A stretch of DNA of 64,000 nt, taken from NCBI GenBank assembly GCA_049287305.1, contig JBAQFO010000013.1, forward strand, positions 189 through 64,188, written 5' to 3'. Numbering within the stretch: position 1 is the stretch's first letter; every line of letters starts with the position of its first letter. The DNA comes from Minisyncoccia bacterium (GTDB lineage Bacteria; Patescibacteriota; Minisyncoccia; Phycocordibacterales; UBA9973). The position numbers and the translations under genes were made by a program. This document shows positions 752 through 19,289 of this stretch, in pieces. A model generated the notes under the pieces. The model saw only the letters and a program-made list of their open reading frames with translations, was not told the origin of the DNA and ran no database searches.

Positions 752-803
752 GATATTTTTCTATTATACTTCTAATACTTTTAATTATAGCATACGTGTC
801 AAG

Positions 804-1400: not shown

Positions 1401-1476
1401 AATGCCAACAAATGCCAATAAAATGGGATTTTGAAGAGTAGCTAAAAACGGGCAAAAATGCTAGATTGCATAGATA

Positions 1477-2676
1477 ATGAAAGAGTATTTGCCAGAATGG
1501 AAGATATATTTGTGGAAAAAGCTGTTGCTCGATACTAGTGACTCGGACAGGGTATTTCAGCCCAACGATTTTATCTTCTTCGATACGGAGGACCAACAAC
1601 GCTTGGTATTGCTAAACGCACAAAAAGGCATTAACAGGATAAACTCATATACGATTGAACTCGCCAAAGGAGCAAAAACGGAAATCGGCGGTGCCGATGG
1701 GCCAAGCTCCGACCAGTATTATAAATTCGAGGTACGGAAGATCTTGTTAGCCCTCATTGAACTGGCCATCGAAGACCCTCGTTGTTTAAAGATCACAGAC
1801 ATCGAGCTAGGGAAAAAAGTGTTGCATGACTATCGCCAGAAAATGAAAGCCCGCCTGACGGATAAACAAAGAAGAGAGCTTGCAGTTCTTTCCATAACGG
1901 CTGGGCTTGGCGGACAACTACCTAAAAACGACCCCCTTCTTGTGGACCTTTTTTGCGGTTTACCGGAATACATATATAACAAAGTCGATAAAGGAGAGAA
2001 GCTCACGTTGCCAAATCTTGACATTCTAATTGACCAAACATCCGACGCAACCATCTTCTCTTCGCTTCGCTTCAAGCTCACCATAGACAAGAAAAATTTG
2101 CAGGCACGTCTAAACGCCTACGTCGCTGACTTTATAGCGGGCGAATTGATCCCGCCTCAAGGAGTTAGGCTCTTCATATTTGAGCAGCAGAAAAACAACA
2201 TCCTCGGTGCGATCCAGTCCTTAGCAGCGAGATACGGTAAAAAGAATATTGCGATAACTTTCGAGGAAGTCGCTCGGATTGGCGGTTGGGCGAACAAAGA
2301 TGAGCATCACTACCGATTTTATGAAACGATATTGGCTCTGGAGCAATTGGGAGAAATCGAAATAAAGGACCTACGGAAAGAAGAGGTTATCCTGTCGCTC
2401 GTAGAAAAAACCGTTCCGGAAAAAGAAAAAGTTGCCCCAGTAAAAGAGTTGTCCCCTGCGGATAAAAAGAAACTTTTCATTTTAGAGAAACTCAAAGAAG
2501 ATTGGGACTTGGCTCCCAAAGACGGGAGACAGGTGCAGCTTAAAATTTCTGGCGACCAGGTATATGAATGGATGATGGAACTCGGCATCAATTATTACTC
2601 GCTGGAAAACATCCTGCTTGGTTTCAAGAAAGAAGGCCTAATCATTAAGTACGAGTCGATAAACCCCGCCATGTAA
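1477..2676 (+). CDS. hypothetical protein, 399 aa (island-encoded)
   Basis: long ORF with typical coding composition; no recognisable motif. Confidence 0.5.
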   Translation: MKEYLPEWKIYLWKKLLLDTSDSDRVFQPNDFIFFDTEDQQRLVLLNAQKGINRINSYTIELAKGAKTEIGGADGPSSDQYYKFEVRKILLALIELAIEDPRCLKITDIELGKKVLHDYRQKMKARLTDKQRRELAVLSITAGLGGQLPKNDPLLVDLFCGLPEYIYNKVDKGEKLTLPNLDILIDQTSDATIFSSLRFKLTIDKKNLQARLNAYVADFIAGELIPPQGVRLFIFEQQKNNILGAIQSLAARYGKKNIAITFEEVARIGGWANKDEHHYRFYETILALEQLGEIEIKDLRKEEVILSLVEKTVPEKEKVAPVKELSPADKKKLFILEKLKEDWDLAPKDGRQVQLKISGDQVYEWMMELGINYYSLENILLGFKKEGLIIKYESINPAM

Positions 2677-2680
2677 ATAT

Positions 2681-3163
2681 ATGTCTAACGATTTATACAT
2701 ACAACTTCCAAATGACTTTGAAGAGCAGTACCTGAAATACAAGGCTGCTCTTTTGGGCGAAGAAATTAAGCCCGTGAAAACCGAGATTTTTCAGGAGGCA
2801 GATAAAAAATATTCCGACCTAAAAGAGCCGATAATGATAAAAACTTTGGGAATAGAAATTAGCGACTATTATATATCGAAGGGCAACGAAAAACGCGAAA
2901 TTAACGCTACAGATAAATGGCTCATATATTTCTTGTACTACAAATTTACGAAAAATAAAGACGAGTGTTTTAGACCCGAACGACTCGTGGCAGAAATGGA
3001 GGCGGAACTGGGCAAAAAAACTGAAAAATATATCGAAAATAGAATTGGGGAAATAAACAAACTGGTTAAAGAACTAATAGTAAAAGGCAGGACGAACATT
3101 GGAAAATTTATTAAGCACGAAAAAGGCCGCGGCTATCACTTAAATCCCAAAATTGTGATATAG
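2681..3163 (+). CDS. hypothetical protein, 160 aa (island-encoded)
   Basis: ORF starts 5 nt after the previous stop (operon-like); no motif recognised. Confidence 0.45.
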   Translation: MSNDLYIQLPNDFEEQYLKYKAALLGEEIKPVKTEIFQEADKKYSDLKEPIMIKTLGIEISDYYISKGNEKREINATDKWLIYFLYYKFTKNKDECFRPERLVAEMEAELGKKTEKYIENRIGEINKLVKELIVKGRTNIGKFIKHEKGRGYHLNPKIVI

Positions 3164-3257
3164 GCCACAAAATAATCCCAAGAAAATAAACGCTTGGGAA
3201 AATTCAATATTTTTTTCTCTGAAATACCTTTGTAAAATAAGGGTGTTTTTTAATATA

Positions 3258-3283
3258 TCACAAACAGGTCACAAAATTTGTGA
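3258..3283. promoter_or_regulatory. operator-like palindrome TCACAAA-a-TTTGTGA plus an upstream TCACAAA half-site, in the AT-rich region upstream of the methyltransferase operon
   Basis: perfect 7-bp inverted repeat with 1-nt spacer at 3269-3283; extra direct half-site at 3258-3264; lies in a 200-bp AT-rich intergenic region about 90 bp before the 3370 start. Confidence 0.3.
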
Positions 3284-3369
3284 TTCCTCTAGAAGTTAAA
3301 CTTAAGATAATTCTTTTCGAGAAGAAGATTATAAATTTTATTCACCTTCCTTTTCTCTAATCATACTAT

Positions 3370-4698
3370 ATGTCTAGAAAAAAGGAAAGCAAAAAACATA
3401 TGAGAGAAAATACATTACACGGAGAGAAGCTAACATGGGCGACGACGAGGCGAAAAGTCGTGGACTTGCTACCTAGTGGCTACAATCCACGAAAAATGAG
3501 CGAGAGTGAGCGTCGAGACCTCGAAGATTCCATTAAGGAGTTCGGTACGGTCGTGCCGGTGGTCTTGAATATCGGGACTAGAGATAACGTGCTCATAGGG
3601 GGCCACCAACGCGTCACCATTTATGCTGACCTCGGAATAAAAGAAGTCGATGCCATGGTGCCGAGCCGAGAGCTGAGCGAACAGGAAGAAAAAACGCTCA
3701 ACCTCCGGCTTAATAAAAATTTAGGAAGTTGGAACAATGAGCTCCTCAAGGAAATGGATATGGACTTGCTCCTCCATGTCGGATTTGACGACGAGGAATT
3801 GCAGGATTTGTTTGATGACGTGGACGTAATCGATGACGAGTTCGATGTCGAAAAAGCTATTAAAGAAACGAAGGTAGCGAAAGTGAAGCCGGGAGAAATC
3901 TGGCAGCTCGGCGAGCATCGGCTATTTGTAGGCGACTCGACAGACGCCGAAGGAGTGAAAAAATTAATGAACGGCGATCTGGCTGACGTCATATATTGTG
4001 ATCCGCCTTACAATATCGGCCTCGACTACTCCAAGGGGGTCGGCACCGATGGAAAGTATGAAGGCTCATACACCAGCAAAAAGGATTCCAAGAAAGATTC
4101 TGTCTATGCATCTTTCATTGACGCGAGCATCAAGGTGGCACTGGCAATTTCAAAACCAAATGCCCATATCTTCTACTGGTGCGACGAACGGTACATCTGG
4201 CTAACGCAAACGCTCTACCAGCAAAACAAAATCGACAGCAAGCGGGTGTGTTTGTGGATCAAAAATAATTTTAGCGTGACCCCGCAGGTGGCCTTCAACA
4301 AAGCATACGAGCCGTGCGTGTATGGAGTCATCGGGAAACCGCATCTCAATCGGAACTTCACCAATGCGAACGAACTCTTAAATCAGGAAATCGGGACGGG
4401 CAATCAGGTACACGAAGAAATTCTCGACATGATCAATCTCTGGATTGAAAAGAGGGACGCAGGACAGGACTACGCTCACCCTACGCAGAAGCCGGTGACC
4501 TTAAATGAAAAGCCTTTGAAAAGATGCAGTGCTCCAGGGCATATCGTCTTTTCCGGATTTGCCGGAAGCGGCAGCGACTTGATTGCCTGCGAGCAACTGA
4601 ATCGCAAATGGCGAGGAGTCGAACTCGATCCCATTTTTGCCACCGTCACTATTGACCGATGGGAGGCATTTACCAACCAAAAAGCGAAACTATTATGA
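3370..4698 (+). CDS. ParB-like nuclease (ParB/Srx) domain fused to an N6-adenine/N4-cytosine DNA methyltransferase
   Basis: N-terminal GGHQRV ParB-type motif; C-terminal DPPYNIG (motif IV of amino-MTases) and HPTQKP (AdoMet-binding motif I of the PF01555 family). Confidence 0.8.
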   Translation: MSRKKESKKHMRENTLHGEKLTWATTRRKVVDLLPSGYNPRKMSESERRDLEDSIKEFGTVVPVVLNIGTRDNVLIGGHQRVTIYADLGIKEVDAMVPSRELSEQEEKTLNLRLNKNLGSWNNELLKEMDMDLLLHVGFDDEELQDLFDDVDVIDDEFDVEKAIKETKVAKVKPGEIWQLGEHRLFVGDSTDAEGVKKLMNGDLADVIYCDPPYNIGLDYSKGVGTDGKYEGSYTSKKDSKKDSVYASFIDASIKVALAISKPNAHIFYWCDERYIWLTQTLYQQNKIDSKRVCLWIKNNFSVTPQVAFNKAYEPCVYGVIGKPHLNRNFTNANELLNQEIGTGNQVHEEILDMINLWIEKRDAGQDYAHPTQKPVTLNEKPLKRCSAPGHIVFSGFAGSGSDLIACEQLNRKWRGVELDPIFATVTIDRWEAFTNQKAKLL

Positions 4699-5453
4699 GT
4701 ACGACCATTAAGCAAGGAGACATATACAAGCTCGGAGAGCATATCATTGCCTGCGGCGATGCGTTGGATGCCAACTTTGTGAACAAGGTCATTGGCAACA
4801 GAAAAATCAGGGCGATACTTACAGACCCGCCGTATGGAGTCGACTATGTCCAAGGGAAAAAATATCTCAATCAAAAAATGGGGGTTGAGAGCGATAAGGA
4901 CATTGTCGGCGATCAACTGCAAACGGATGAAGAGTATGCGGAGTTCACTAGAAGCTGGCTCGGACTCGCCATTCCATATCTTGATTCATATAACGCCTGC
5001 TATATCTTCAACAGCGACCTGATGTTTCCCGCGCTCCGGCAAGGCATGAAACAAGCCGGATTCCATTACAGCCAGATGATCATCTGGCTCAAAAACCAAG
5101 TCGTCATGAATCGGAAAGACTATCTCATGATGTTCGAGTTAATCGCTTACGGCTGGTTCGGCAGGCACAAAATGGAGCGCTCGAAAGCAAAGAGCGTGCT
5201 TTTTCACCCGAAACCGAGTAAATCAAAACTGCACCCGACGCAAAAACCAGTGGGACTCTTGAGAAAGCTGATACCGAATTCTACGAAGATAAACGAATAT
5301 GTGTACGACCCGTTTCTTGGAAGCGGGAGTACGACCGTGGCTTGCGAACATCTCGGTCGAAGATGCATCGGCATAGATATTGATCCGGAATATGTGGCGA
5401 TAGCGATTGCCCGTGTGGAAAAGCTGACCGGCAAAAAAGCGGTAAAGGTATGA
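4659..5453 (+). CDS. DNA methyltransferase, N4/N6 (PF01555-like) family
   Basis: DPPYGV catalytic motif and HPTQKPVGLLRKLI AdoMet motif; start overlaps the previous gene by 40 nt (translational coupling). Confidence 0.8.
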   Translation: MGGIYQPKSETIMSTTIKQGDIYKLGEHIIACGDALDANFVNKVIGNRKIRAILTDPPYGVDYVQGKKYLNQKMGVESDKDIVGDQLQTDEEYAEFTRSWLGLAIPYLDSYNACYIFNSDLMFPALRQGMKQAGFHYSQMIIWLKNQVVMNRKDYLMMFELIAYGWFGRHKMERSKAKSVLFHPKPSKSKLHPTQKPVGLLRKLIPNSTKINEYVYDPFLGSGSTTVACEHLGRRCIGIDIDPEYVAIAIARVEKLTGKKAVKV

Positions 5454-5836
5454 GCGATGAATTTCCAAACCCAAAGAAATTCGGAGTGTACAAGACCCAA
5501 GACTTCGAGTCCTACGCTCTGTGGAAGGCGTTGCCCTCGTTCCTCCGGGGCCAGCCACGTCAAGTGCTTGAGAAATTCGGCATTGACGAGGAAATTGCGC
5601 TTGGCTTGCTTGAAATCAAAACGCAGGCCGAGTTCGCGAGGCGATTTAATATCAAGGATCCTGCAACTTTGACGGATTGGAACAAGAAATTGGAGAAGGA
5701 AGAAGTTATACCAAGAATCCACGCATGGGCCCGGAAGCTTACCCCGAACGTCATCTTTGCCCTCTACCGCACCGCGAGCAAACACGGCAAAGCACCCGAG
5801 GTAAAGGCGTGGCTGGAAATAGTGGAAGGCATGTAA
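5450..5836 (+). CDS. hypothetical small protein (phage-like, helix-rich; possibly DNA-binding)
   Basis: ATGA start/stop overlap with the upstream MTase gene; no definitive motif. Confidence 0.45.
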   Translation: MSDEFPNPKKFGVYKTQDFESYALWKALPSFLRGQPRQVLEKFGIDEEIALGLLEIKTQAEFARRFNIKDPATLTDWNKKLEKEEVIPRIHAWARKLTPNVIFALYRTASKHGKAPEVKAWLEIVEGM

Positions 5837-5842
5837 AAATAT

Positions 5843-6067
5843 ATGAAATATCCAAATTTAGAAAAATTAGGAGATAAAAACATGAACGCGGAAGACGTGG
5901 CGTCGATTCTTTCGCAGACTCTGAAGGATGTAGCGGCGAGAAAAATTACGCTCAGGTACGCACTTGTTGTATCCCGTCTCGCCCTCGCTCTGTCTAAAAC
6001 AATTGAAACGGTGGAACTGAAGAAGCGAGTGGAATTTATCGAGCAAGTTCTCAAAAAACGAAAATGA
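5843..6067 (+). CDS. hypothetical small protein
   Basis: 74-aa ORF; sits between coupled genes in the same orientation. Confidence 0.35.
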   Translation: MKYPNLEKLGDKNMNAEDVASILSQTLKDVAARKITLRYALVVSRLALALSKTIETVELKKRVEFIEQVLKKRK

Positions 6068-7575
6068 AAAACCTAGCTACTTTGTTGAAAAAAGGAGACC
6101 TGACTCCTAAGGAACGGATGCTCTTTCTGGTACACGATGCGGTAAGTAAGGACAAAACTGGCAAGGAAATTCTGACAGAAGCGGACAGGCACGCATTGTC
6201 GGAAGGATGGAAACCACTGCATGACCGCGAGGTAGACGAATATAACCGCTACAATAAAGGGTGGCGGACAGAGGGTTCCCTTCGACTGGATGCCCAGACT
6301 ACTTACTTGAACGCTCAAGTTTCCCTGCTGCGGTCGAGCAGGCTTCTCGACTACGCCATGTGGAGCGACTCCCTGCAAAAAGGAAATGGATTTGGGAAAA
6401 TACATCTCTATGTAGACGAAAACGAAGCGCTGGATCTTATCCTAAAAAATACCGGGCTTCGATTCGATCAATTTTTACATAGCTATACGTTTCAAAAAAT
6501 AGACGAGGACTTAAAAAAAGACATTTTAGCTCTCTACGAGGACGCGGGAACCGAAAGTCAGTACCTCGACCAGGAAGAAATTATCGCGGACTTGTTTAAT
6601 GGCACAGAACAGCTGACAGTGGAAGCAAAGGAAAAACTGGCTGACATAATCGCTGACGTGCCTCACAACAGATACGCCGAGCTTTTCAAGGAAAAAGGCA
6701 TGAAGTCTGGAGCATGGTGGTTCTATGGGTATTTCGCCGAACTGCCGACTTTGGAAATAGCGAAAAGGTGGGCAGACGAGAACGAGATCAGCTATGATGC
6801 CAATAGCGAAACCTTGGCGGAGGATTTGTCTCTCAAGATCCAAGATTATGCGGAGAAAAACAAAGTTGAGGTCAGAGAGCTATTAAGAAGAACCATCCGT
6901 AAATGGTTGGACGAGGGCTTGTTCGAAAAGAAGTACGTTCCTTTATGCAATAGTGCTGACAAAACTACGTGCAACGACAGCGACACTAAACTTCCCCACA
7001 TGGAGATTTTAAAAAGGTGGCTCAAAGCCAAGGACGAAGCAGAGGCAGAAATACAAAAACTGATAGATGCTGGGCAGTTGAAAGTTGAAGTCAGGGAAAA
7101 AGAAATTTTTGAATCAAAGGAGAGTATGAAAATAATAACGGGTGAGAGTTTGTATAACCTCCAAGGCGGTTTCGACTTCGCTCAAGATTTCAAAAACCAA
7201 GTTGAAGGCCTGAAGCCGCTCGATTGCCTCATTTTGTTTTTGCGAAACGGCGATTTCTTGAAGGGCTACGCTTCTCTCTTGGCCTTTGCCGATATTTACA
7301 AAAAACTATCGAGGCTTTACGAGATCGATTTGGGCTACAAAATAGACGGATTCATCAATGATTTCAAGAAAAGCATAGAACAGTTGAATGACGAACTGCG
7401 ATACCTTGCCGAAAAGTTGGAAGGAAATATTTACCGGGAAAACAACACCAAATTCCTGGCCGAGGTTTTCATGGACCGTATGCTTATTCGCCTGGAGGAC
7501 ATAGAGCCGGGAACGGACGAAACGGAAATGCACTATGCTCAAGAGTTTGAAAAAATATTTCTGAATTTATTTTAA
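6064..7575 (+). CDS. hypothetical protein, 503 aa
   Basis: ATGA overlap with the upstream ORF; long acidic, helical ORF; no motif recognised. Confidence 0.5.
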   Translation: MKNLATLLKKGDLTPKERMLFLVHDAVSKDKTGKEILTEADRHALSEGWKPLHDREVDEYNRYNKGWRTEGSLRLDAQTTYLNAQVSLLRSSRLLDYAMWSDSLQKGNGFGKIHLYVDENEALDLILKNTGLRFDQFLHSYTFQKIDEDLKKDILALYEDAGTESQYLDQEEIIADLFNGTEQLTVEAKEKLADIIADVPHNRYAELFKEKGMKSGAWWFYGYFAELPTLEIAKRWADENEISYDANSETLAEDLSLKIQDYAEKNKVEVRELLRRTIRKWLDEGLFEKKYVPLCNSADKTTCNDSDTKLPHMEILKRWLKAKDEAEAEIQKLIDAGQLKVEVREKEIFESKESMKIITGESLYNLQGGFDFAQDFKNQVEGLKPLDCLILFLRNGDFLKGYASLLAFADIYKKLSRLYEIDLGYKIDGFINDFKKSIEQLNDELRYLAEKLEGNIYRENNTKFLAEVFMDRMLIRLEDIEPGTDETEMHYAQEFEKIFLNLF

Positions 7576-7619
7576 TCACAAACAGCAAAAGACTGCGTGT
7601 AGCACCGCAGCCCCCGCCG

Positions 7620-8867
7620 GTAACATATTCTTTTAGTGGAGGCCGTCAGTTAGTGAACTTTAATAATGAACTATGCGACTAGAACTTAATGCGATCCGGA
7701 AACATGAGCGTCAACTGGGCCATGATTTCTCCCCAATTAAAGCAGGACTTCTCCCATCTCTCGGAGATGTCGGCTTGAGCGAGCCAGAGCAGTTTGACTA
7801 AAGCGTCATCGTGCGGGAAGACCTGGGTAGTCTTGGTTACTTTCCTAAACTGGCGGTTCAGATTTTCAATCGTGTTCGTGGTATAGATCATTCTCTTGAC
7901 CACTTGAGGATAGCCGAAAAACGGAGAAATATCGCTCCAGCGATTCTCCCAACTTTGCAGGTATGAGATGTACTGTGGCCACTGTTTTTCCATTTCTTTC
8001 AGGGCTTGGAGTCCGGCGTCTTCTGTCGCGGCGGTGTATACCGCTTTTAGATAATCGGCAAATTTCTTCCTGTCTTTGTTGGAGATGAACATCAGAGTGT
8101 GCCGGATTTGATGGACGACGCAGACCTGGACTTCCGTTCTTGGGAAAATGGTCTTAATGGCGTCGGGAAATCCTTTGAGTCCATCGACACAAGCGATAAG
8201 TATATCATCGACGCCCCTATTTTTTAACTCGTTCAGAACATGCATCCAGAATTTTGCGCCTTCTGTTTCACTGATCCAGATACCTAGGATTTCTCTGTGA
8301 CCATAGAGGTTAATGCCGAGAGCGATGTAGGCAACCTTTGAAGAGATTTTCCCGGCTTCACGAACTTTGAAGTGCATCCCATCCAAGTAAAGAATTGGGT
8401 AGCAGGAAGACAGCGGCCTGGCTTGCCACTCTTTCACAAGCGGAAACACTTTGTCGGTAATCGCGGAGATAGCAGGCTGTGATATTTCCATCTTGTTCGC
8501 TCGCTTCAGGAAATTGGAAATATCTCTGGTGGTTAATCCTTTAGCATAGAGGTCTATGATCATCGCCTCGGTTTCGTTGCCCACCAAGTCATACCACGGA
8601 CTGCGACTATTTGCTTCTTCCGGTAGATCAGGTTGGGAATTTGTCGGGATTAGGCTCGTCTGTTTGGGTTCGGATGGGAACGATTCTACCATGATGGTTT
8701 CTTCACTAATTTCAGGTTTTTCCTGCAATGCTGAAAGTTCCTTAGCCATCGCCAGAATTTCCTCAGGACTATTAATTTTCCGTATCTTGGTTTGATACCC
8801 GTACGGCAGGGTACTTATTTTATTTTTCATATGTTTGGTCGACCTGCCACCTAAAGAACGGTGTCAC
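7620..8867 (-). mobile_element. IS256-family insertion sequence (about 1.25 kb) with imperfect terminal inverted repeats
   Basis: left end 7620-7649 GTAACATATTCTTTTAGTGGAGGCCGTCAG; reverse complement of right end 8836-8867 is GTGACACCGTTCTTTAGGTGGCAGGTCGACCA; the two align as imperfect IRs flanking the transposase. Confidence 0.65.
7679..8830 (-). CDS. IS256 family (mutator-type) transposase
   Basis: 383 aa; conserved mutator-transposase pattern (ILYLDGMHFKVRE ... ACVDGLKGFPDAI ... VQVCVVHQIRHTL ... YTTNTIENLNRQFRKVTK). Confidence 0.9.
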   Translation of the reverse strand: MKNKISTLPYGYQTKIRKINSPEEILAMAKELSALQEKPEISEETIMVESFPSEPKQTSLIPTNSQPDLPEEANSRSPWYDLVGNETEAMIIDLYAKGLTTRDISNFLKRANKMEISQPAISAITDKVFPLVKEWQARPLSSCYPILYLDGMHFKVREAGKISSKVAYIALGINLYGHREILGIWISETEGAKFWMHVLNELKNRGVDDILIACVDGLKGFPDAIKTIFPRTEVQVCVVHQIRHTLMFISNKDRKKFADYLKAVYTAATEDAGLQALKEMEKQWPQYISYLQSWENRWSDISPFFGYPQVVKRMIYTTNTIENLNRQFRKVTKTTQVFPHDDALVKLLWLAQADISERWEKSCFNWGEIMAQLTLMFPDRIKF

Positions 8868-9152
8868 CTGCGAGCGGATGCCCGCGAGGACTATTTTACG
8901 AATTTTATTGGTTTTGCATAGATTTGTTTACAAAAAAGTGTTGAATTTATTGATTAAATTCATGACGCAACTATTGACTTTTGTGCGAAATATGATATAT
9001 TATATATGGTACCTGTTCCTTGCTAAGTACATACGTACAAAGTCTGCTCGTGACGAGCCAGAGGAATTATGGTACTAGAAAATTCTTATTGAGAATGTCT
9101 GCGGCATAGTGCCAAAGGCTCAATAAGGAAAACCCAACCTTGAGGGCAGACC

Positions 9153-9722
9153 GTGGCAGAGACTACGGACGCATCCTCAAGTTGCTTCGGTGGCAGACCC
9201 GCGAAGGGACGTCACCAAGGAGGAACGATGAGTAGGAGTCGAGAACCTGATGTATTCCTAAACCACAGTTCCGCAGTACACACCGTGAGATTCAGCGAAA
9301 ACGGACGGCTTGGCGGGCTTGCAATACCCGGCCAGTTCTTCGTGTTTCGCGATCTCGCAGTTCAGTGTGAAGGAGAGCATTCGCCGGAGGTGGCGTGCGG
9401 CAGGTGCCGCGTGACCGGCTCGGTTTCGGCGTTCAAGCTCTTCACGAACATGCTTCTTGCTGCAGGCAAGGTGATTCTGGGAGCCGATGACAATGTGCGG
9501 CTCAATGGAACCACTCGAGAAACGATCCCGATGCATCTCGACAGGCAGACGGACGTAGAACAGATGGCGATCGTCGATGCCCCCTCGGAGAAACGCATGT
9601 GGCTGCTCCTCGAGAGTTGCGTCGCCGAACTTCGTAAGTCGAAAGAGGCAGCAACCTCATGGTCTTATGCCATTCCAAGTTCTCTCACCCAGACCAGGCG
9701 CACGGCATCCGTGTCGCACTAA
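9153..9722 (+). CDS. hypothetical protein in high-GC insert (uncertain gene call)
   Basis: 189-aa ORF in about 60% GC DNA, where long spurious ORFs are common; no motif. Confidence 0.25.
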   Translation: MAETTDASSSCFGGRPAKGRHQGGTMSRSREPDVFLNHSSAVHTVRFSENGRLGGLAIPGQFFVFRDLAVQCEGEHSPEVACGRCRVTGSVSAFKLFTNMLLAAGKVILGADDNVRLNGTTRETIPMHLDRQTDVEQMAIVDAPSEKRMWLLLESCVAELRKSKEAATSWSYAIPSSLTQTRRTASVSH

Positions 9723-9734
9723 AAAGGAACGAAA

Positions 9735-10667
9735 ATGAAAACACTTGTCAGCATCACTCTCTCCATCATCCTGCCTTTCATGGGTCTCACGGCCCAGGCG
9801 GCGGATTCTCCGCAGCCGAAGAGCAAGGCATTCTGCCTCTCCGCCGTCACTAAGGGTCTGGTGACCGCGAACCCGAAGGCGAAGACCTGGTCCACTTCGA
9901 AACCCGAGCAGCAACGCTTCATGTCCACCTATTACGACGGCGCAGTCGCCGATCTGCACAAGGTGGACGATGACAAAGTTCTGCAGGCGATCGCCACAGG
10001 CAGTTCGGCGAAACTCCAGGACTTCTTTGCCAAAGGCGGCTTCGCTAACATGCCGGTCCGAATCCCGGCGGGCGGACACGCGGTCGGAGTGCTGTTCGAT
10101 CTGCTCGTCGACTGGAAAACGGTCGGTGAGCAGAAGGACATCTCCATTCGTCGACCTCAGGGAGGTTACGACGATTACTCCGGCGCTCAGATGCTCGAGT
10201 TCGAGGCCTTCAGTCTCGAGGGTCACAAGTATCCGCTTTTCCGGATCGAGACACGCCAAGGCTGGGACGTCTACCTGGTGGAAGCCGCCGATGGCGAGAA
10301 TCTCCAGGCTTCCGACTTTCCCGCGCGCGCGAAAGCTCTCCTCGGCCTTCCTCGCGAAGAGGCGGACTACGAGAAGCTGAACTTCCCGAGCGTCCTGATG
10401 TCTGCCGATGTGGACATTTCATGGATGGTTGGGATGCGCGTTCCCGGATTCTCGATCGACGAGGCGGTGAAGAAGATCAAGCTTCGTCTCGACGAGAAAG
10501 GTGCACGTGCCCAGTCCGCTGTCGCTTTCACGACTCGTGGCATGGACTCGTCCTACACCATCCAGAGGTCTTTCTACGTGATCTTCACGCGTGAAGGCCT
10601 CAACTTTCCGCCGTTCGTCGCCCTTGCGGCGCCCGATTCCTGGGTGAAGCAGGGCAGCAACGACTAA
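9735..10667 (+). CDS. secreted hypothetical protein (high-GC insert)
   Basis: N-terminal signal peptide MKTLVSITLSIILPFMGLTAQA-AD; plausible SD (aaaaggaacg) upstream; 310 aa; no recognisable domain. Confidence 0.55.
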   Translation: MKTLVSITLSIILPFMGLTAQAADSPQPKSKAFCLSAVTKGLVTANPKAKTWSTSKPEQQRFMSTYYDGAVADLHKVDDDKVLQAIATGSSAKLQDFFAKGGFANMPVRIPAGGHAVGVLFDLLVDWKTVGEQKDISIRRPQGGYDDYSGAQMLEFEAFSLEGHKYPLFRIETRQGWDVYLVEAADGENLQASDFPARAKALLGLPREEADYEKLNFPSVLMSADVDISWMVGMRVPGFSIDEAVKKIKLRLDEKGARAQSAVAFTTRGMDSSYTIQRSFYVIFTREGLNFPPFVALAAPDSWVKQGSND

Positions 10668-10720
10668 CCCTCAACCCGAGGGACGCGCCACAAGCCGCTC
10701 CTCAAAACACCTCTGGAGGT

Positions 10721-11209
10721 ATGACCATGAAGCTTTGGAAAAAGCTCGCAATCGTTCTCGTGTTCATCGCTGCTGCTGTTGAAACCCTCTTCATTGGAGG
10801 TGCCTACGCTGTCGCGGCGAAAGCTCGCTCGGAGGCTGCGGTGGCACAACAGGAAGCAAAGGACATTGAGGTCCGGGCTCGTCGCCGCGTCGAAGCCTGC
10901 GAAGCGGACGCGCGAAAAACAATGGACCGGCTCGCCGCCAAGGACGCGGAGCTCTTCCTCAAAAAGGAGCTCGGCCTCGATGCCGACTATCCCATGAATG
11001 ATCGAGTGAAGGAGGAGACGGAGTTGTACGTATGGTTTCTTGAAGCCGATCTTGAATCGCTCGACAGTTTTATCAAAGGGCGAGAAGATCAGTTCGACTT
11101 CAATCAAACGTACAAACGCCAGCAGAAGATCAATACCTTCTACCTCGAAAAAATCTACGATGCGGCAAGGCGGTGCGGCATTCACATCCGACCGTACCCC
11201 GGTCGCTGA
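10721..11209 (+). CDS. membrane-anchored hypothetical protein (high-GC insert)
   Basis: N-terminal hydrophobic helix KKLAIVLVFIAAAVETLFIGGAYAVAA followed by a charged, helical domain; GGAGG upstream. Confidence 0.5.
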   Translation: MTMKLWKKLAIVLVFIAAAVETLFIGGAYAVAAKARSEAAVAQQEAKDIEVRARRRVEACEADARKTMDRLAAKDAELFLKKELGLDADYPMNDRVKEETELYVWFLEADLESLDSFIKGREDQFDFNQTYKRQQKINTFYLEKIYDAARRCGIHIRPYPGR

Positions 11210-11234
11210 AAGCACTTTAGTTTGTTATCACCCC

Positions 11235-11272
11235 GAGGCCGGCGTTCGAAAGGACGCTGGCCTCATTTTTTT
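11235..11272 (+). terminator. rho-independent terminator closing the high-GC insert
   Basis: GAGGCCGGCG-ttcgaaagga-CGCTGGCCTC stem-loop followed by ATTTTTTT. Confidence 0.6.
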
Positions 11273-11384
11273 AATAAGATTGATAGATTGTTCGGAATCT
11301 CTTATAATATATGGGTCCTCTATAATTTTGAATAGGTACACATTTGCCCTTATTCTCAAAAAGATAGATGGATAAATTAAATTT

Positions 11385-12425
11385 ATGCTTGAATCCCGAA
11401 GAGAATTTTTTAAACATCTAACTTTACCAAAAAACGAAACCCGTTCTATTGGCAACGCGACAGCAGCTAAAAACCCACTTGAAAGAACAGCTTCACGCCG
11501 AGATTTCATTAAAGTTCTAGGCATTGTTGCTACTGCACTTGCAATTCCAGAAGATATTTATGCCAGAAAGAGAGACAAAAGAAACCAAGCGATTGAGAAA
11601 GAGGGTTCATTCATTACCCCCGAACAGCTGCGAAAAATGGTGCTCACAGATAACTCAGAGCGCGTTTTTATCCGTTTTCCGAACTCGCCGCGCCTATACG
11701 AGATAACGGACCGGAGCCAAAACTTGATTGCATTCGCGCGAGGCGCGATGACCCCGGAAACTGAGAAAATGCTAGAGCAGTCAGATGAGTTTACGAAAAT
11801 TCATACGCATCCCTTAGGAATTTACGGCATAGCTGGATATACTCCCGATGAAATTGACGCGGCGCGGGAAGGCCTGATGCCAGTTCCTCTCTCCATGCCG
11901 CCAAGCATCCCGGATCTTCTGAGCGCAAAGATAATTAGCCAAATTGAAGGTATGGGAGAGCCGATCCGAGTGAATCAAGAAATCTATGGCACAGATGGCA
12001 TTTGGCGTTTTAAAGGCGGAGCAGACAGCGTTTTGCTTACGGAAATCGAGCAAGTAAACCAAGAACTTGTAAATATCTTCTCGGATTTCCGAAAAACTCT
12101 TCCTGCCAATCTTCAAGGACCCTACGACAAAATCATCCACCTTGCTGAAAATGAGGGCGATGCCCGCCAAGGATTTGTCTGCCGGAATATAAACGAGCTT
12201 ACGAAAAATCCAACATTTGCTCCTTACCTTCCCCTTTTGGAAGAAAAACTTGCAAAATTATCTTTGGAGTACAAAGAAACTTTCGCTCTTATGGAAGAGA
12301 TGACCGCGCTGAGCATTGCCATGACACACCCGGAACAACGTGATGCGGCACTACAGAGATATTTGGCAATTGTAGAAAAAGAAGGTTTTGAAATTAAATT
12401 TGAGCCATATAAAATCCATGTTTGA
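11385..12425 (+). CDS. hypothetical protein with a Tat-type signal (true start may be internal)
   Basis: SRRDFIKVLGIVATALAIP twin-arginine motif about 35 aa into the ORF; no catalytic motif. Confidence 0.5.
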   Translation: MLESRREFFKHLTLPKNETRSIGNATAAKNPLERTASRRDFIKVLGIVATALAIPEDIYARKRDKRNQAIEKEGSFITPEQLRKMVLTDNSERVFIRFPNSPRLYEITDRSQNLIAFARGAMTPETEKMLEQSDEFTKIHTHPLGIYGIAGYTPDEIDAAREGLMPVPLSMPPSIPDLLSAKIISQIEGMGEPIRVNQEIYGTDGIWRFKGGADSVLLTEIEQVNQELVNIFSDFRKTLPANLQGPYDKIIHLAENEGDARQGFVCRNINELTKNPTFAPYLPLLEEKLAKLSLEYKETFALMEEMTALSIAMTHPEQRDAALQRYLAIVEKEGFEIKFEPYKIHV

Positions 12426-12993
12426 AAGACTTTGGAAAAATAAAGAAGCAAGGGCGGTTGACGAAGCTCTTGTAAAAAAGAAAGTATTCCATGGTAATGT
12501 TGCCGTGCCCTCAATACCTGGTGATTCACTAGAAAATTTTAGTCCGGATTTGGAACGCAGTATAGAGCATAATATTGAAATGTTTTTAGGTCCCTTGGTT
12601 TCAGGAAAAGGAGAAGAAATACCTGTTCTTACCAGAAGAGCCGACGATGGGAAAATTAGTCAAGAAATGGTTGCTCATGCGGAAGTAGATTTTGAAAGCG
12701 GCGAGATTATTAAGTTTACTGGGAAAGGTCTAGATAATCCAAAACGCGAGACAAAAGTAACTTTTTTTCTAGCTCTCGGACCTTATGATACAGCGGAGAT
12801 AGCTTATAGAGAACAGTTCAACAGGAAAGGAAAAGGATATATGAGTTTCTCTATTTCTTCCCTTGAATGGGAGTTCCAGCGTAATTGGCCGCAATTATCT
12901 GAAAAAGCAAAACGGGTACTTGAAGCTTCGGTTCAAAGATATAATTCAAAGAGCGGAGCACAACCGCCTGACCCGAAGTACTTTAAGAATTAA
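12388..12993 (+). CDS. hypothetical protein
   Basis: ORF overlaps the previous gene by 38 nt in another frame. Confidence 0.45.
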   Translation: MKLNLSHIKSMFERLWKNKEARAVDEALVKKKVFHGNVAVPSIPGDSLENFSPDLERSIEHNIEMFLGPLVSGKGEEIPVLTRRADDGKISQEMVAHAEVDFESGEIIKFTGKGLDNPKRETKVTFFLALGPYDTAEIAYREQFNRKGKGYMSFSISSLEWEFQRNWPQLSEKAKRVLEASVQRYNSKSGAQPPDPKYFKN

Positions 12994-13068
12994 TGGCTTA
13001 CTATTGCTTTTTTACTCAACTATGTTATAATATACAAATAAGGATTGCTAAATACATGAATTAAAAAT

Positions 13069-13959
13069 ATGGGAATGGAAGGACCAAACAGAACACAAGC
13101 CACAGAGGCAAAACAGCCGCCTAAGTTTAACCCCGAACCCGGTCGGCTGGATCGAAGGTTTTTAAGACAAGGAGACACCTTTTCTATTAGAGACTCTGCA
13201 GGAAATTTTTATGATTTTGCTCTAGAACCGGAACGCGTTCCTGGTGTTGTGCGGGCTAAATGCGTAAGAACTAACAACAAGCATTTTATGGGAGCGACAG
13301 GCAATCTTGCCGACATGAAAGAGGGGCAGCCATTCCGGATGTTCAGCGAGACTGCCCGCTGGGAAACAAATCCTGTTGATCAAGTGAAAGTTTCTAAGCG
13401 AGAGCTTAACGTGCTTTCCGCTATTCCAGGAAGTTGCGTGACTGTACAGGGCGAGGATGGTCGCTGGTATTCCTTTGAAATTCTTACCCGGGATATCCCC
13501 GGTCAGAAAATTGAATGGAAATGCGTGGCAGCTTCACCCGGAGAAGAGATGTTTGTGGGAACGTATGAAAATATTCCACCTCCAACCATTAAAGCGGGCG
13601 AAGAATTTTCCTTTGGGGGTAATCCGGCAAACAAGATCCGGGTTAAGGATGTAGAGTTTGAACTTAGTGTTCGCCCGGAAAGAGTTTTGGGGCTAAAGTT
13701 TAAAGAATTAATTGAAATGAGCATAGATTCTTCCCAGGATTCGGATCGGTTCGCGGAAGAACTTCGGGCATTACCAGATAAAATAATCGAGAGACTAAAA
13801 ACAATAGTGCAAGGTAAAATCTTGCCATTAAGCAGCGATCCGACAGCTCTGAAAAAAGATACTGCAAAAAGAAATGAATTGAGAATGTATACAGTCAAAG
13901 CATCGGCCATACAAAATGAAAGCGACGAAAGGGCTAAAAGATCCCGCAAGCAATCTTAA
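13069..13959 (+). CDS. hypothetical protein, starts MGMEGP
   Basis: ORF; its 5' end shares a 25-bp identical sequence with the next gene. Confidence 0.5.
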   Translation: MGMEGPNRTQATEAKQPPKFNPEPGRLDRRFLRQGDTFSIRDSAGNFYDFALEPERVPGVVRAKCVRTNNKHFMGATGNLADMKEGQPFRMFSETARWETNPVDQVKVSKRELNVLSAIPGSCVTVQGEDGRWYSFEILTRDIPGQKIEWKCVAASPGEEMFVGTYENIPPPTIKAGEEFSFGGNPANKIRVKDVEFELSVRPERVLGLKFKELIEMSIDSSQDSDRFAEELRALPDKIIERLKTIVQGKILPLSSDPTALKKDTAKRNELRMYTVKASAIQNESDERAKRSRKQS

Positions 13960-14016
13960 ATTCTGTGTTATGATATAAAGGTCGAGATTATTAAACTAAA
14001 AATATGAATTAAAAAT

Positions 14017-14406
14017 ATGGGAATGGAAACACGGAAAACCGAAAAAGAGCAGTGGCAGGAAAAAACCGCTCTAGCTAAAAATTTTCAGCTAACTCCTGAT
14101 ATGAGCGGAGATTTCACGCGACTTCGTTCAACGCTTGGACTACATCACCATTTTACAGGTCCGGCTACTCCCCAACGAATTGAGGAGTTTGTTGTGGGAA
14201 AAATTGAAGAAGAACGCGGTATGCAGCAGAGCCGTGAGGCAAGCCCCGCAGAGACTTCTGGGAAGGGATATGGAGCAGAAGAAGCTCAAAGTAAGGCAGA
14301 ATATTTTACTGAAAGCCTAAGATTGCTGGAAAGATTCCTTGCAAGACACGGCGGAGACAATGCTCGTGCAAGATTAGGCATTGAAAAAGACGAAGCTTTA
14401 GGTTAG
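14017..14406 (+). CDS. hypothetical protein, starts MGMETR
   Basis: ORF; 5' end atgaattaaaaatatgggaatggaa identical to the 5' end of 13069. Confidence 0.45.
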   Translation: MGMETRKTEKEQWQEKTALAKNFQLTPDMSGDFTRLRSTLGLHHHFTGPATPQRIEEFVVGKIEEERGMQQSREASPAETSGKGYGAEEAQSKAEYFTESLRLLERFLARHGGDNARARLGIEKDEALG

Positions 14407-14436
14407 AAAAGTTAACAGAGAGCCGGAAGTTTTCCA

Positions 14437-14468
14437 CAAAACCGCTTAAAGCGGTTTTGTTTTTTATA
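14437..14468 (+). terminator. rho-independent terminator
   Basis: AAAACCGCTT-aa-AGCGGTTTT hairpin followed by a T-run (GTTTTTTAT). Confidence 0.6.
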
Positions 14469-14556
14469 CATCTTAACCGTTTGTTTTCCTTTTTAGATTA
14501 CGCAGGAAAAGTTATCAACTTATGCCTCCTAGACTCCCCGCAGGGGTTCTGTCATC

Positions 14557-14579
14557 AATGTATGTATGGAACATACATT
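14557..14579. promoter_or_regulatory. perfect 9-bp inverted repeat AATGTATGT-atgga-ACATACATT overlapping the recombinase start; candidate recombinase binding/att core or operator
   Basis: read directly from sequence; the annotated ATG (14566) lies in the 5-nt spacer. Confidence 0.35.
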
Positions 14580-15885
14580 AACAAGGCCGATGGGGATGGA
14601 GACCAAAATATCAATCCCCGTAAGCATTAAATATTGCCTATACGCCAGAAAGAGCACCGAGCAAGAGGACAAGCAGGTTCTCTCCATTGACTCCCAGATC
14701 AAGGAAATGGAGAAAATGGCAGTAGCTGAGAATTTGGAGATCGTGGTCAGAAAACAGGAATCTCACTCAGCTAAGGAAGCGGGCCAGCGACCCATCTTCA
14801 ACGAAATCGTCGAAGAATTAAAGGCCGGAAAATACAGTGGCATCTTAACCTGGGCACCGGATCGAATCGCTCGAAATGCGGGCGATCTCGGCAGGATCGT
14901 GGACTTAATGGACCAAAAGAAGCTCATTGAAATCCGCACCTACGGACAGAAATTCATGAACACGCCGAACGACAAGTTCATGTTGATGATTTTGGGTTCA
15001 CAGGCGAAACTGGAGAACGACAACAAGGTTATAAATGTAAAGCGAGGGCTGAGAGCGAGAGTATCGATGGGACTAAGGCCGTCACTTGCTCCGACTGGAT
15101 ACTTAAACAGCAAGAACAAGGATGAGAAGTGCCAGGTATTCGTTGACCCGAAACGTGCCCCGATTATCAAGCAAATGTTTGAGAAAGTAGCCAATGAAAA
15201 TTACTCCGGCAGAAAAATATGCCAGTGGCTTAAGGAAATTAAATTCAAGACGAGGACCAACAAAGAGCTTACGCTAGGCAATGTGTACCGCCTTCTTAGA
15301 ATGACTTTCTATTATGGAGTGTTTGAATATCCTGCCGGTAGTGGAGAATGGTACACCGGCAAGCATACGCCCATAATTACTCAGTCGTTATTTGAAGCGG
15401 TGCAGGAAAAGATAAAAGTAGAAAAGAAAAAGGCCTACGGCCGAGAGTTCGCTTTTACTCGAATGCTCCATTGTGGATACTGCGAGAGCGGCATAACGGC
15501 CGAGGAGAAAATAAAGGAACTGAAAGATGGTGGATCAAACTCGCATATATACTATAGATGCACTAAAATAAAAAATCGCGACTGCCCAAACGAGTCGGTG
15601 AAAGAATCCATTCTCATAGACGAGATGCTGCCTATTATCGATACCATGAGTTTGGACAAGAGCGAGCTGAAGCAAAAGCTTGAAAAGGAAGTAGCTAGAT
15701 ATGCGCTCTTCCAAACCGGTGTGCTTAAGCAAGATTTGCCGCATTCGAAAAAAGACAGAAATATCAGTATTAAAACATTCGCCAAATATATGCTCCAGCA
15801 CGGCACGCTTTTGGAGAAGCGAGAGGTAATGTCGTGCATAAAGAGCAAAATATTTCTGAAAGACAAGAAATTGGCGGTGGAATAA
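14566..15885 (+). CDS. large serine recombinase (resolvase/invertase-type catalytic domain plus recombinase and zinc-ribbon domains)
   Basis: YARKST...S(I)DSQ catalytic serine region at the N-terminus; conserved ...RIARN... resolvase motif; C-terminal CGYC...YYRC zinc ribbon. An alternative start at 14590 (MGMETK) is possible. Confidence 0.85.
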   Translation: MEHTLTRPMGMETKISIPVSIKYCLYARKSTEQEDKQVLSIDSQIKEMEKMAVAENLEIVVRKQESHSAKEAGQRPIFNEIVEELKAGKYSGILTWAPDRIARNAGDLGRIVDLMDQKKLIEIRTYGQKFMNTPNDKFMLMILGSQAKLENDNKVINVKRGLRARVSMGLRPSLAPTGYLNSKNKDEKCQVFVDPKRAPIIKQMFEKVANENYSGRKICQWLKEIKFKTRTNKELTLGNVYRLLRMTFYYGVFEYPAGSGEWYTGKHTPIITQSLFEAVQEKIKVEKKKAYGREFAFTRMLHCGYCESGITAEEKIKELKDGGSNSHIYYRCTKIKNRDCPNESVKESILIDEMLPIIDTMSLDKSELKQKLEKEVARYALFQTGVLKQDLPHSKKDRNISIKTFAKYMLQHGTLLEKREVMSCIKSKIFLKDKKLAVE

Positions 15886-15893
15886 AAACAGAA

Positions 15894-18800
15894 TTATTCT
15901 AATTTCTCTAGAAACAATTTGCCTAACTTGTGTTCACGACTGTCCTCTGGTTGTTGTTCAAGCTCGGTACCATATCCCTTTAATTCCTTAAGGAAGGTGG
16001 TTTTTCTGCTGTATAAGGATTTAATTGCCGCCAAAGTATTCAGCATCGTTTCTTTTTCATCTAAACCAACGCTCCTTGCAGTATCAAAAAGTTTTCTTGG
16101 AAACCCATCCTTACGAGAACTTGGAAAGTCGTTGAGAACATGAGGGTCTTGAATAAAGCCGCATATCTCATTTTTCCTTGCAAGCGGTTCCCCGGTTTTT
16201 TCTAAGATGGTAGACCAAATATCAATGACTTTTTCTTTGTTTTCATTTGTAAGCAATTTGAACGAAGGAACAAGAAAGCGATAGGGTGTATTGTGTCGCG
16301 GATGATCGGCACCCAGCGATTCACCCCATTCAAGTAACTTGGGAGCTATTTCATTCACATCCTTATCTATGAGAGAAGGCCGACTTCCTTCTAATTTAGA
16401 GAGCACATGATTAGTGATCTCAAAATCTTTTGCCTCCAATACTGCATCTTTAAGAGAAGATATGTATAACTGACCCCCCTGAAGCGCCCCAAACATTTTG
16501 AGTATATCGATAATTTGGTCACGCTCTCCGGCATCGATAGTTGCAATTAACCGAGTCACTAAAGGAGTGATTAATTTTTCTCGGATGCTAATCTTCTGTT
16601 CCTCAACGCCCTTAAATAAAGTTGTAAGACGAGGAATATCAAGTCCAATGGCATGAGTTTTAAATATTTCGATAAAGTGTTGCTTCGCTTCTGGAGAATC
16701 CGTAATCAGCTTTTTAATTGCGGGAAGAAAATTGACATAATATGTAGTTGCGATATTTGGACTATTTATATAATCACTATACTGCTTTGCTACTTCAAAA
16801 ATAAGTTTCTCGGGAACCTTATCCTCAAGTACTAACTCATTCACAAATACAGCAAGTTCTTCTGGACCCTGACCCCAACTTTTTTTGTGCAAAACTTCAT
16901 GAATGTAGACAAATAATTTTTGTATCTGTGCTTCTTTAAGAAACGGAAATAGGGATTTTATGACCTCGAGATTTTGCTTTTGATTTTTATTCAGTGCTGT
17001 TGGTTCAATTTGCTGGACAGCATTCAAAAGTAAATCAGTTAAGGTCGTGTTTGCATATACGCCCAGCGCTCCTTCGTATTTACCAATCTCTTGCAAACTA
17101 GCAAGGACGTCTGGTACGTAAGAAACGCCTTGGTCATCAACATATTGGTAAGCTTTTTGTAAAGATTCTGCGACTTTCTTTTGTGCAGCAACAGGAACAA
17201 TTTTGTAGTTTTCTCCGTAGGCTTCGCTGTATTCCATAAACAGCTCATTCTCGGTCTCAAGTGGTTTTACATGTTCGTTAATGATGATGTTCCGGTCAGT
17301 AGGGCCGGATGCGTGAGTAAGAACCGACAACAACCCCTTTGCCGAAAATTCTTTGATATTTGCCAATTGACTTGTATGTGCTAAATGAGATGAAAATACA
17401 TCTGCAATCTTGGTTTTCTTCACCTCAGGGATTTCAGGAAATACTTCTTCAATGACTGACAAAATATTGAATACGATAGCAGCTTTACCTTGGTTTTTCT
17501 TTTCAACAACCTTATCTTCAAGTAGCTTCACTATCGATTTTTTTACTGCATCGTCCGCCCCTTTGAGTAATTCTTTAATGGAGTCAGATTTCCCGGTAAA
17601 GAGTGCAATCGCTAACTCAGAATCTTCACTTTCATAGCCCCCATATCCTTCGCGTTTTAAATTAATAAACTGCTCAGGGTTTCTAGAGGTAAAAGGTCGC
17701 GAAGCTTGAAGGAAATCTCCAAGTTCAGGATTTTGCTTTAATTCTGCTTGTATATTTTGTTCATGCGGCGAATCAAGTTTACGACCTCTAAGGGAACCCT
17801 CGGTCATTGAAAGAACATCAGGGTCCTTCTTTATGATGCCGAAAAACTTTGGCCATTCCTCTTGTAGGATAATTAGCTTAGCCAGAAAGGAGAGGTTGCC
17901 AGTTATAAATCCTTTATCAAGATTTTCCTGTTCCTCTTGTGCCAGTGCTAGTAAATAACTAGCACTTAAGTTGTTGTAGAATTGCTTAATTTTCCTCGGG
18001 GTATGTGAGTAGGCAGTCAATACTAAACTGGCCACATTTTCTTTTTCCGTATCATCTTTATAAGGTATGACCACATTGCTAGCAATCTTATCAATATATT
18101 TTTCTAGATCACCTCTTATAAATGGCGACAACCGAACGGTTGCTTGAAAAAACTTCTTTAAAAACTCACGGCTCTGTTTGTCCTTCTCTGGTATCGTAAG
18201 CTCGTCATTTAAGAGGCCCTCTTTGAGATGATTAATAAGAGCTTCTTCATCAACTGGCACTAAATATACACAACCCTCCACATTCAGGAATGTTTTTATT
18301 GTCCCCAGTAACTCAATTGCTGTTTCATTTGTACAACGATCAAGGTTGTCGATGGTAACTACGATGCGTTTTTTACCAATTTCGGATGCTTTTTTTACAT
18401 ATTGTCTAAAGACATCTTCGAATTGCTCGTTTGAAAATAGAGGCTTATCTTCCTCGTCAAATTTTTTAATTTGGATTAACTTAGTCGCCCTGTGTGCCAA
18501 ACCAAGGATGAGTGCGGGAATCAAGGGAGCCAAAAAAGTAATTAGGGAGCGGGGTGTCCATTGAAATTGGACAGCAAATATATACCATCCGATGTACCAT
18601 GCAATAAGCTCAAAGATGAGATTTTTTATCTCCTCTACATTCCACTCTAAATCTCCAGATTGTCGCGTTCTTTTGATTGTTTTATAGAGTCGAACCGGAA
18701 GCGTATCGTCATTAATTGAAAGGTCTTCTTTCATCTGCTTCAGAAATTGTCTGTAGAAAGCGTCTTTTTGATATTTCCAAGCGTCAAAATATACAAATCC

Positions 18801-19052: not shown

Positions 19053-19207
19053 TGGTGAGATTGTTTAAGGTGAAGCGGCATGAAACAATCATACCATTTT
19101 CTTTCTAAAAATCTAACTTAATTTTTGGTTCGATTCCCGCATGGGGTAATCGATTTTGCAACTCAAAAACCATTGAATTTATTAGGCCTCCGCATCGACC
19201 TTGACTG

Positions 19208-19278: not shown

Positions 19279-19289
19279 ATAGCGGTATA

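Follow-up and report, generated by a model that had tools for sequence, protein, structure and literature searches.

A GC-rich operon, very probably acquired horizontally, encodes a compact divergent serpin-fold protein in a Minisyncoccia genome

Bacteria of the candidate phyla radiation (CPR) live attached to other microbes. To our knowledge, very few of the factors that they secrete for this interaction have been identified, and in the paper library searched serpins go unmentioned in the 15 top-ranked papers dealing with CPR terms. Serpins without inhibitory function include ovalbumin, HSP47, PEDF, and maspin. Canonical prokaryotic serpins (thermopin, tengpin, miropin, siropins, and chloropin) are about 370-420 amino acids (aa) long. 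The minimal viral serpins (poxvirus CrmA/SPI-2, myxoma SERP-1, and K2/SPI-3) come from viruses of eukaryotes and still measure 330-370 aa. For inhibitory serpins, one published account gives the hinge consensus from P17 to P9 as ExGTEAAAA (x = E/K/R), where small residues allow loop insertion (PMC8233489, citing Hopkins 1993, Irving 2000). Another reports that serpins protect the extracellular cellulosome against protease attack (10.1101/2020.04.21.053413). Here we describe an island rich in guanine and cytosine (GC) in a Minisyncoccia genome, at 9125-11275 of a 64,000-nucleotide (nt) stretch of contig JBAQFO010000013.1 (assembly GCA_049287305.1, positions 189 to 64,188), hereafter the window. 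The island holds three open reading frames (ORFs), and the central one, ORF-B, is a serpin-fold protein that compares with the above at about 290 aa. We propose that the island is an operon gained by horizontal transfer and that its secreted mini-serpin captures proteases outside the cell through loop insertion, and we give this reading a probability of about 0.6.

The first-pass annotation of this DNA, made from the sequence alone, had claimed a GC-rich island with abrupt boundaries in an AT-richer genome, and this was confirmed. GC content is 57.1% in 9125-11275, against 43.0% in the rest of the window and 43.5% in the window as a whole. Compared with all other 2.15-kb windows (mean 43.0%, standard deviation 2.9%, maximum 51.2%), the island lies at z = 4.9. 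In 200-nt windows, GC is 31.5% at 8900-9099, then 54-63% until about 11100, then 34-38%, so that the island stands between AT-rich flanks (31-37% at 8900-9100 and 11200-11500). Maximum-likelihood compositional change points fall at 9097 and 11265. The strand-symmetrised tetranucleotide profile of the island correlates with that of the rest of the window at r = 0.00. Most other segments reach 0.85-0.95, and the lowest value elsewhere is 0.32, in a giant ORF at 43-49 kb. Sliding-window GC and tetranucleotides, the two checks first proposed, both single out the island. Apart from the island, only the giant ORF (44040-49625, minus strand) stands out strongly by tetranucleotides within the window, at r = 0.32-0.64. 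It encodes 1861 aa, has no Pfam match, and is unusual in composition, with a GC content of 0.54 at second codon positions (GC2).

Codon usage gives the same picture. GC at third codon positions (GC3) is 0.63 in ORF-A, 0.74 in ORF-B, and 0.64 in ORF-C, and about 0.35-0.55 in host and element genes. Since the GC excess is located at synonymous sites, amino-acid composition is not its cause. ORF-A and ORF-C choose codons as ORF-B does (per-codon log-likelihood ratios of +0.04 and +0.16, respectively), and a synonymous-codon score against ORF-B usage is negative in all 21 host and element genes tested. The codon-usage comparison suggested at the outset therefore places the three ORFs together, and their common synonymous usage fits a single block from one source. 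On the strength of synonymous-site GC, the foreign tetranucleotide profile, the sharp boundaries, and codon usage shared among the ORFs and unlike that of host genes, we conclude that the island is very probably DNA acquired horizontally from a more GC-rich source, one of the two origins first considered. It has the deviant synonymous composition, sharp edges, and host continuity of a genomic islet.

An abrupt shift in composition could also result from an assembly or binning chimera, in which GC-rich DNA of another organism was misjoined to a CPR contig, perhaps via an IS256 repeat. An IS256-family element (7610-8878) does lie 220 bp leftward, and the data are all short-read metagenomes, probably from a single project. 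Comparison across assemblies argues strongly the other way. Contig JBAQNI010000008.1 (GCA_049303715.1) equals window 1910-20667 with zero mismatches, and so does the Logan per-run contig of SRR28062879 for window 633-19235. The two metagenome-assembled genome (MAG) assemblies and this Logan assembly are thus identical from 1910 (or 633) to past 19235, across both junctions. A Logan contig of a second run, SRR28062869, equals window 9736-12735, again with zero mismatches, and spans the right junction. Because four assemblies, the window's own included, are 100% identical, both junctions are reproduced at the assembly level. The left change point, 9097, does not coincide with the end of the insertion sequence (IS) at about 8878; at 220 bp from it, it speaks against a repeat-mediated join. 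The IS also lies outside the GC-rich DNA and is single-copy in the window. On the right, unique sequence leads from the island to element genes and on to a recombinase, tRNA-Gly, and core metabolism genes. A chimera, which the first-pass annotation had named as the alternative, is therefore very improbable. Its supposition of a CPR genome is supported: ORF-B is 100% identical to an NCBI protein labelled as from a Minisyncoccia MAG and annotated "hypothetical", and the host part of the window carries ordinary core genes (PPDK, enolase, DHODH, LepA, LeuRS, and MurJ). We regard the composition of the island and its continuity across assemblies as established; the direction and source of the transfer we infer.

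No insertion scars or flanking repeats were found around the island. A candidate promoter or target duplication, 8976-9014 against 11283-11319, was rejected, as 78 of 500 shuffles and 14 of 143 AT-rich controls score equally. A pattern match at these sites is circular because the pattern was derived from the two of them. An integron cassette was also rejected, since an integron integrase is lacking and the hairpin at the 3' end looks, by eye only, like a plain terminator.

ORF-B (9735-10667, plus strand) encodes 310 aa and is predicted to be a secreted, compact serpin-fold protein. Its N-terminus, residues 1 to about 22, is a signal-like segment ending AQA/AD, in line with the signal peptide first described. 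The claim that neither this protein nor the 162-aa ORF-C, an orphan, has a recognisable motif fails for ORF-B, a divergent serpin. Relatives of ORF-B were collected by a word-indexed search, which returned 23 sequences at 26-59% identity, all unnamed or "hypothetical", and one weak match with a Serpin Pfam domain. The profile built from these 23 had 68 matches in the PDB (E <= 10). All 60 of those listed are serpins, with a best E of 8.6e-4, and the matches cover the s5A-hinge-loop-s4B region. With a profile of 58 members, only serpins appear among the PDB matches listed (E = 6.4e-9). The Pfam Serpin family (PF00079) is itself matched by 40 of these 58 diverse members at E <= 0.01, the best at 2.1e-10.

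Structure prediction agrees with the profiles. An AlphaFold2 model of ORF-B, built on the alignment of the 23 relatives, has a mean predicted local distance difference test score (pLDDT) of 83.9 and a predicted template-modelling score (pTM) of 0.81. In a Foldseek search of the PDB with this model, the best 50 matches are all serpins, with E down to 1e-10, and a BFVD search returns viral serpins. The sole disordered segment of the model, 259-270, falls where the reactive-centre loop is expected. We also aligned the family with human alpha-1-antitrypsin, using a comparison sequence confirmed as a full-length match to PDB 2qug (E = 1.8e-264). The hhalign alignment (E = 1.4e-5) sets ORF-B 208-299 opposite residues 279-389. 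It pairs AVKKIKLRLDEKG with AVHKAVLTIDEKG, and M270 with the P1 residue, Met358, of alpha-1-antitrypsin. ORF-B thus almost certainly adopts the serpin fold, with three beta-sheets and an exposed reactive-centre loop between s5A and s1C.

The predicted fold is a reduced one. The model has only four helices of at least four residues and falls short of the full canonical scaffold of 350-400 residues with eight or nine helices (hA-hI). ORF-B residues 23-90 replace about 150 N-terminal residues (1-149 of alpha-1-antitrypsin), and about 15 residues are absent around helix I in the family. From helix F onward, the family appears to be collinear with canonical serpins. A greedy hhalign alignment sets IN.FL...GF, a motif of the family, against INDYVEKGTQGKI in helix F and W127 against W194, with canonical spacing and low confidence; on this alignment, helix F is apparently kept. 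An earlier reading of helix F as missing, taken from the secondary-structure string, was withdrawn after this placement.

The hinge and loop of ORF-B read E254(P17)-K-G256(P15)-A-R-A-Q-S-A-V-A-F-T-T-R268-G-M270(P1)-D. The reactive-centre loop covers about 257-272, and by canonical count (G256 + 14) P1 is M270. The loop would accordingly have the canonical length, with P1 14 residues past the P15 Gly. Against the ExGTEAAAA consensus (PMC8233489), ORF-B conforms at P17, P16, P15, P12, P10, and P9. Across 167 family members, the hinge is well conserved (P15 G in 165, P14 A in 152, P10 S in 146, P9 A in 145, and P7 A in 128), P13 is basic, and P11 is E, Q, or K. The stretch from P3 to P3' is hypervariable in the same 167 members. 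A variable loop centre beside a conserved hinge is typical of bait loops. The even positions from P14 to P6 (A, A, S, V, and F) are small or hydrophobic and the odd ones polar or small, and this alternation fits a strand inserting into sheet A. We regard the homology of ORF-B to serpins, its fold, and its hinge pattern as established; secretion, inhibitory activity, and the target protease are what we infer.

The island appears to be a single transcription unit, in which a promoter and a terminator enclose three ORFs that lie close together and have ribosome-binding sites. A predicted sigma-70-like promoter lies in the AT-rich spacer at 8974-9001 (plus strand). It matches consensus, with TTGACT, a 16-nt spacer, TATATT, and TG before the -10 element. 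A putative 5' leader of about 215 nt follows (9008-9227, plus strand) and turns GC-rich at about 9097. The region 9008-9240 (plus strand) folds at -78.2 kcal/mol, z = -3.0 against shuffles. The leader has no Rfam match at E <= 1, and a riboswitch or other known RNA was rejected on that account.

The upstream ORF had been called doubtful. It is best read as ORF-A, 164 aa at 9228-9722 (plus strand), with AAGGAGG 6 nt before the ATG and no signal peptide; the PGAP model is shorter, at 145 aa. The frame is open over 189 codons within 57% GC DNA and has GC3 > GC1 > GC2. The doubt stands insofar as the codon test does not prove the frame, and is eased in that ORF-A is probably a real gene with a cytoplasmic product. 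A single-sequence AlphaFold2 model of ORF-A has a pLDDT of 34 and is unusable. ORF-C (10721-11209, plus strand) encodes 162 aa, or 160 aa from the ATG at 10727, which has better GGAGG spacing. The N-terminal anchor first ascribed to it is borne out by one transmembrane segment (KD19 2.38), which is followed by an Ala/Glu/Arg-rich helical stretch and a C-terminal domain. DUF2514 was rejected for ORF-C, at 19.2 bits against a Pfam cut-off of 26; the score is probably an effect of transmembrane and coiled-coil composition. The sole database matches of ORF-A and ORF-C are themselves. The GC-rich hairpin terminator noted at first is found at 11235-11264 with a T-run, to 11274 (plus strand). It has a 13-bp stem with 9 GC pairs and coincides with the right compositional boundary. 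Two long ORFs on the reverse strand (9657-10259 and 10664-11215) match no family and are read as shadow ORFs, expected in GC-rich coding DNA.

These features suggest the following mechanism. The three-gene operon, with its own promoter and terminator, would have been acquired horizontally and would now reside inside an integrative element of a Minisyncoccia (CPR) genome. The central gene would encode a serpin that is reduced at its N-terminus and secreted through Sec. As in known serpins, its exposed loop, with the bait around R268-G269-M270/D271, would be cleaved by an extracellular target serine or cysteine protease. The hinge from G256 would then enter beta-sheet A as a new strand, trapping the protease covalently. 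The likely benefit would be that the surface and secreted proteins of the epibiont are shielded from proteases, whether these come from its host, from competitors, or from the epibiont itself. Alternatively, ORF-B may interfere with the organism on which the epibiont lives. The membrane-anchored ORF-C and the cytoplasmic ORF-A would have arrived together with ORF-B.

Several points weigh against this explanation. The hinge departs from ExGTEAAAA (PMC8233489) at P14 (A, not T/S), P13 (R), and P11 (Q), and inhibition is therefore plausible only. From one subfamily to another, the distance from P15 to the conserved R-G differs by one residue, and P1 is therefore uncertain. ORF-B is about 80-100 residues shorter than canonical serpins, and because of this shortening the metastable fold needed for inhibition is not assured. 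No target protease was found for ORF-B, and ORF-B alone has no match among Pfam (E <= 0.1), NCBIfam, PHROG, and PADLOC models. ORF-A has ORF-B-like codon usage, yet the frame test is non-discriminating and its coding status unproven. The boundaries of the integrative element were deduced from one 17-nt repeat. No donor lineage was identified, and the first-pass suggestion that the donor was the host of the epibiont, which would make the proteins host-derived effectors, finds no support here. Nor was an empty site found when the flanking 346-aa and 503-aa proteins were searched in IMG/VR and JGI metagenomes, where they have no relatives.

The same hinge deviations from the consensus (PMC8233489) would suit a real and foreign island in which ORF-B is a non-inhibitory serpin-fold protein, with a binding, carrier, or chaperone-like function, or a surface role together with the anchored ORF-C. 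The heavily reduced N-terminal third points in this direction, as do the presence of PEDF, HSP47, maspin, and angiotensinogen among the structural matches and the many family members that have no signal peptide. The nearly invariant P15 Gly counts against a non-inhibitory role. So do the small or hydrophobic even positions and polar odd positions of the hinge, as strand insertion requires, the bait-loop pattern of a hypervariable centre beside a conserved hinge, and the predicted exposure and disorder of the loop. We consider a non-inhibitory ORF-B rather unlikely, and inhibitory activity of ORF-B, taken by itself, slightly more likely than not. The secreted protease trap remains our preferred reading.

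ORF-B belongs to a large family. An exhaustive profile search over 1.84 billion representatives, with clusters at 50% identity, found at least 1,488 clusters at E <= 1e-3, 1,161 at <= 1e-10, and 477 at <= 1e-30. The cluster names of members are uninformative. Lengths are typically 280-300 aa, with a median of 294 over the 167 retrieved members. Other low-GC contigs, including one of a Saccharibacteria MAG, carry the closest relatives of ORF-B (48-59% identity). Neighbour-joining clusters ORF-B with P0002-P0006 and P0018, which have signal peptides. A survey of homologue taxonomy, also suggested in the first-pass annotation, was informative for ORF-B, whose nearest relatives sit in low-GC contigs but are GC-elevated inserts there, and uninformative for ORF-A and ORF-C, which have no relatives.

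At the low-GC loci with known flanks, the GC of relatives is much higher than that of their surroundings. A 0.1-um groundwater contig (L004) carries a sharply bounded single-gene island with a gene GC of 50% and a flank GC of 33%. The Saccharibacteria copy (L012) lies beside KH-domain, MurA, and TrmD genes (52% in the gene, 39% in the flank). Two short metagenome contigs have 52% and 38% (L020) and 51% and 39% (L017) in gene and flank, respectively. In a fifth locus (L015; 54% and 45%), the gene lies on the opposite strand between ftsW and murG. This copy (6257-7126) is a clean single-gene insertion in the dcw cell-wall cluster, bordered on either side by an AT-rich spacer. Where the genome is itself high in GC, copies look native; that of Acidobacteriota has a GC3 of 0.86-0.88 in a genome of 67-69% GC. 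No neighbour genes are conserved between family loci. Because relatives are GC-elevated single-gene inserts in low-GC genomes, the comparison suggests that such genomes, including at least one CPR genome, have received the gene repeatedly and fairly recently from more GC-rich lineages. A broader proposal, which we put forward as speculative, is that this large uncharacterised family of mini-serpins of about 290 aa has kept the loop-insertion trap, and that its signal-peptide versions were repeatedly imported from GC-richer bacteria into CPR episymbionts as secreted effectors that neutralise proteases of the organisms they live on. One further member, P0020 (L003, 10001-10834), is found on a 145-kb scaffold of 38% GC. 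Its neighbours carry eukaryote-type domains (Mito_carr, SET, PP2C, Mago-bind, and GPN-loop ATP_bind_1), and the scaffold may come from a eukaryote or giant virus.

The island lies inside a tentative integrative element of about 18.4 kb (826-19208), with tRNA-Gly(CCC) at one edge and, at the other, 17 nt that repeat the 3' end of this tRNA. The copy at 809-825 matches 19209-19225 in 16 of 17 bases, 18.4 kb apart, and may be the att repeat bounding the element. A large serine recombinase (14566-15885) matches the phrog_95 integrase at E = 5e-60. The IS256-family insertion sequence near the left edge of the island (7610-8878, minus strand) encodes a transposase at 7679-8830 (Pfam Transposase_mut, E = 6e-84) and has imperfect terminal inverted repeats. 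The serpin identity, the mobile element, and the IS256-family neighbour are additions to the first-pass annotation. Many genes of the element are orphans. The island itself we take to be a genuine case of ordinary horizontal transfer within a mobile element.

Classical morons are autonomous promoter-to-terminator units of deviant composition between element genes. The island fits this layout, and the operon could be moron cargo of a prophage or integrative element, serving for example in superinfection exclusion or anti-phage defence. Among the genes of the element are a serine recombinase resembling integrases and a KAP NTPase that is related to PifA, QatA, and PDC-S20, all defence proteins. 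The poxvirus serpin K2, deposited as a "superinfection exclusion protein", is among the profile and structural matches. Other evidence disagrees. No phage structural, packaging, or lysis genes were detected in the element, whose PHROG matches are to methyltransferase/ParB, integrase, and transposase families only, and the island does not lie inside a recognisable prophage. No island ORF has a PADLOC or PHROG match, and membership of a defence system was rejected on the PADLOC result. Searches by tblastn and blastn found no member of the family in 50,697 phage records, 72,556 plasmids, or IMG/VR. Homologues elsewhere are found among housekeeping genes, not in mobile elements. We therefore think it improbable that the operon serves the element as a moron, and retain the secreted protease trap as the more probable function.

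Other genes of the window merit description. A ParB N-terminal domain fused to an N6/N4 DNA methyltransferase, followed by an overlapping second methyltransferase gene, is encoded at 3370-5453 (plus strand); the pair has no obvious restriction partner. The KAP-family NTPase, of 1052 aa, is encoded between the serine recombinase and tRNA-Gly (15894-19052, minus strand). It has partial matches to PDC-S20, PifA, and QatA (PADLOC E = 5e-24; NCBIfam QatA far under cut-off). A 33-nt direct repeat, 94% identical (13048-13080 and 13996-14028), spans the ribosome-binding site and first codons of the adjacent orphan genes 13069-13959 and 14017-14406. In the host part, the leucyl-tRNA synthetase (34335-37307, minus strand; 990 aa) has a NUDIX-domain insertion immediately behind its editing domain, at residues 384-509 (Pfam E = 2e-10).

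What the analysis adds is the identification of the main gene of the island as a member of a large, unstudied compact-serpin family that recurs as a foreign insert in low-GC genomes. A secreted protease inhibitor on a mobile element would be a concrete, testable candidate for a CPR interaction factor. A serpin fold of about 290 aa without roughly half of the N-terminal helical region would, if true, be a smaller working scaffold than the known minimal serpins, and such a scaffold is of interest for serpin metastability and design. Compared with phage morons and small islets, the island is alike in being a promoter-ORFs-terminator unit of deviant composition between mobile-element genes. Unlike phage morons, it lies in an element without recognisable phage structural genes, and no insertion scars or flanking repeats were found around it. 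The differences from canonical prokaryotic serpins lie in the protein itself. ORF-B shares 10-14% identity with them, and its single sequence is not recognised by PF00079. The family has a reduced N-terminal third and about 15 fewer residues near helix I. Where canonical serpins have the hinge GTEAAAA, the family has GARA(Q/E)SAVA.

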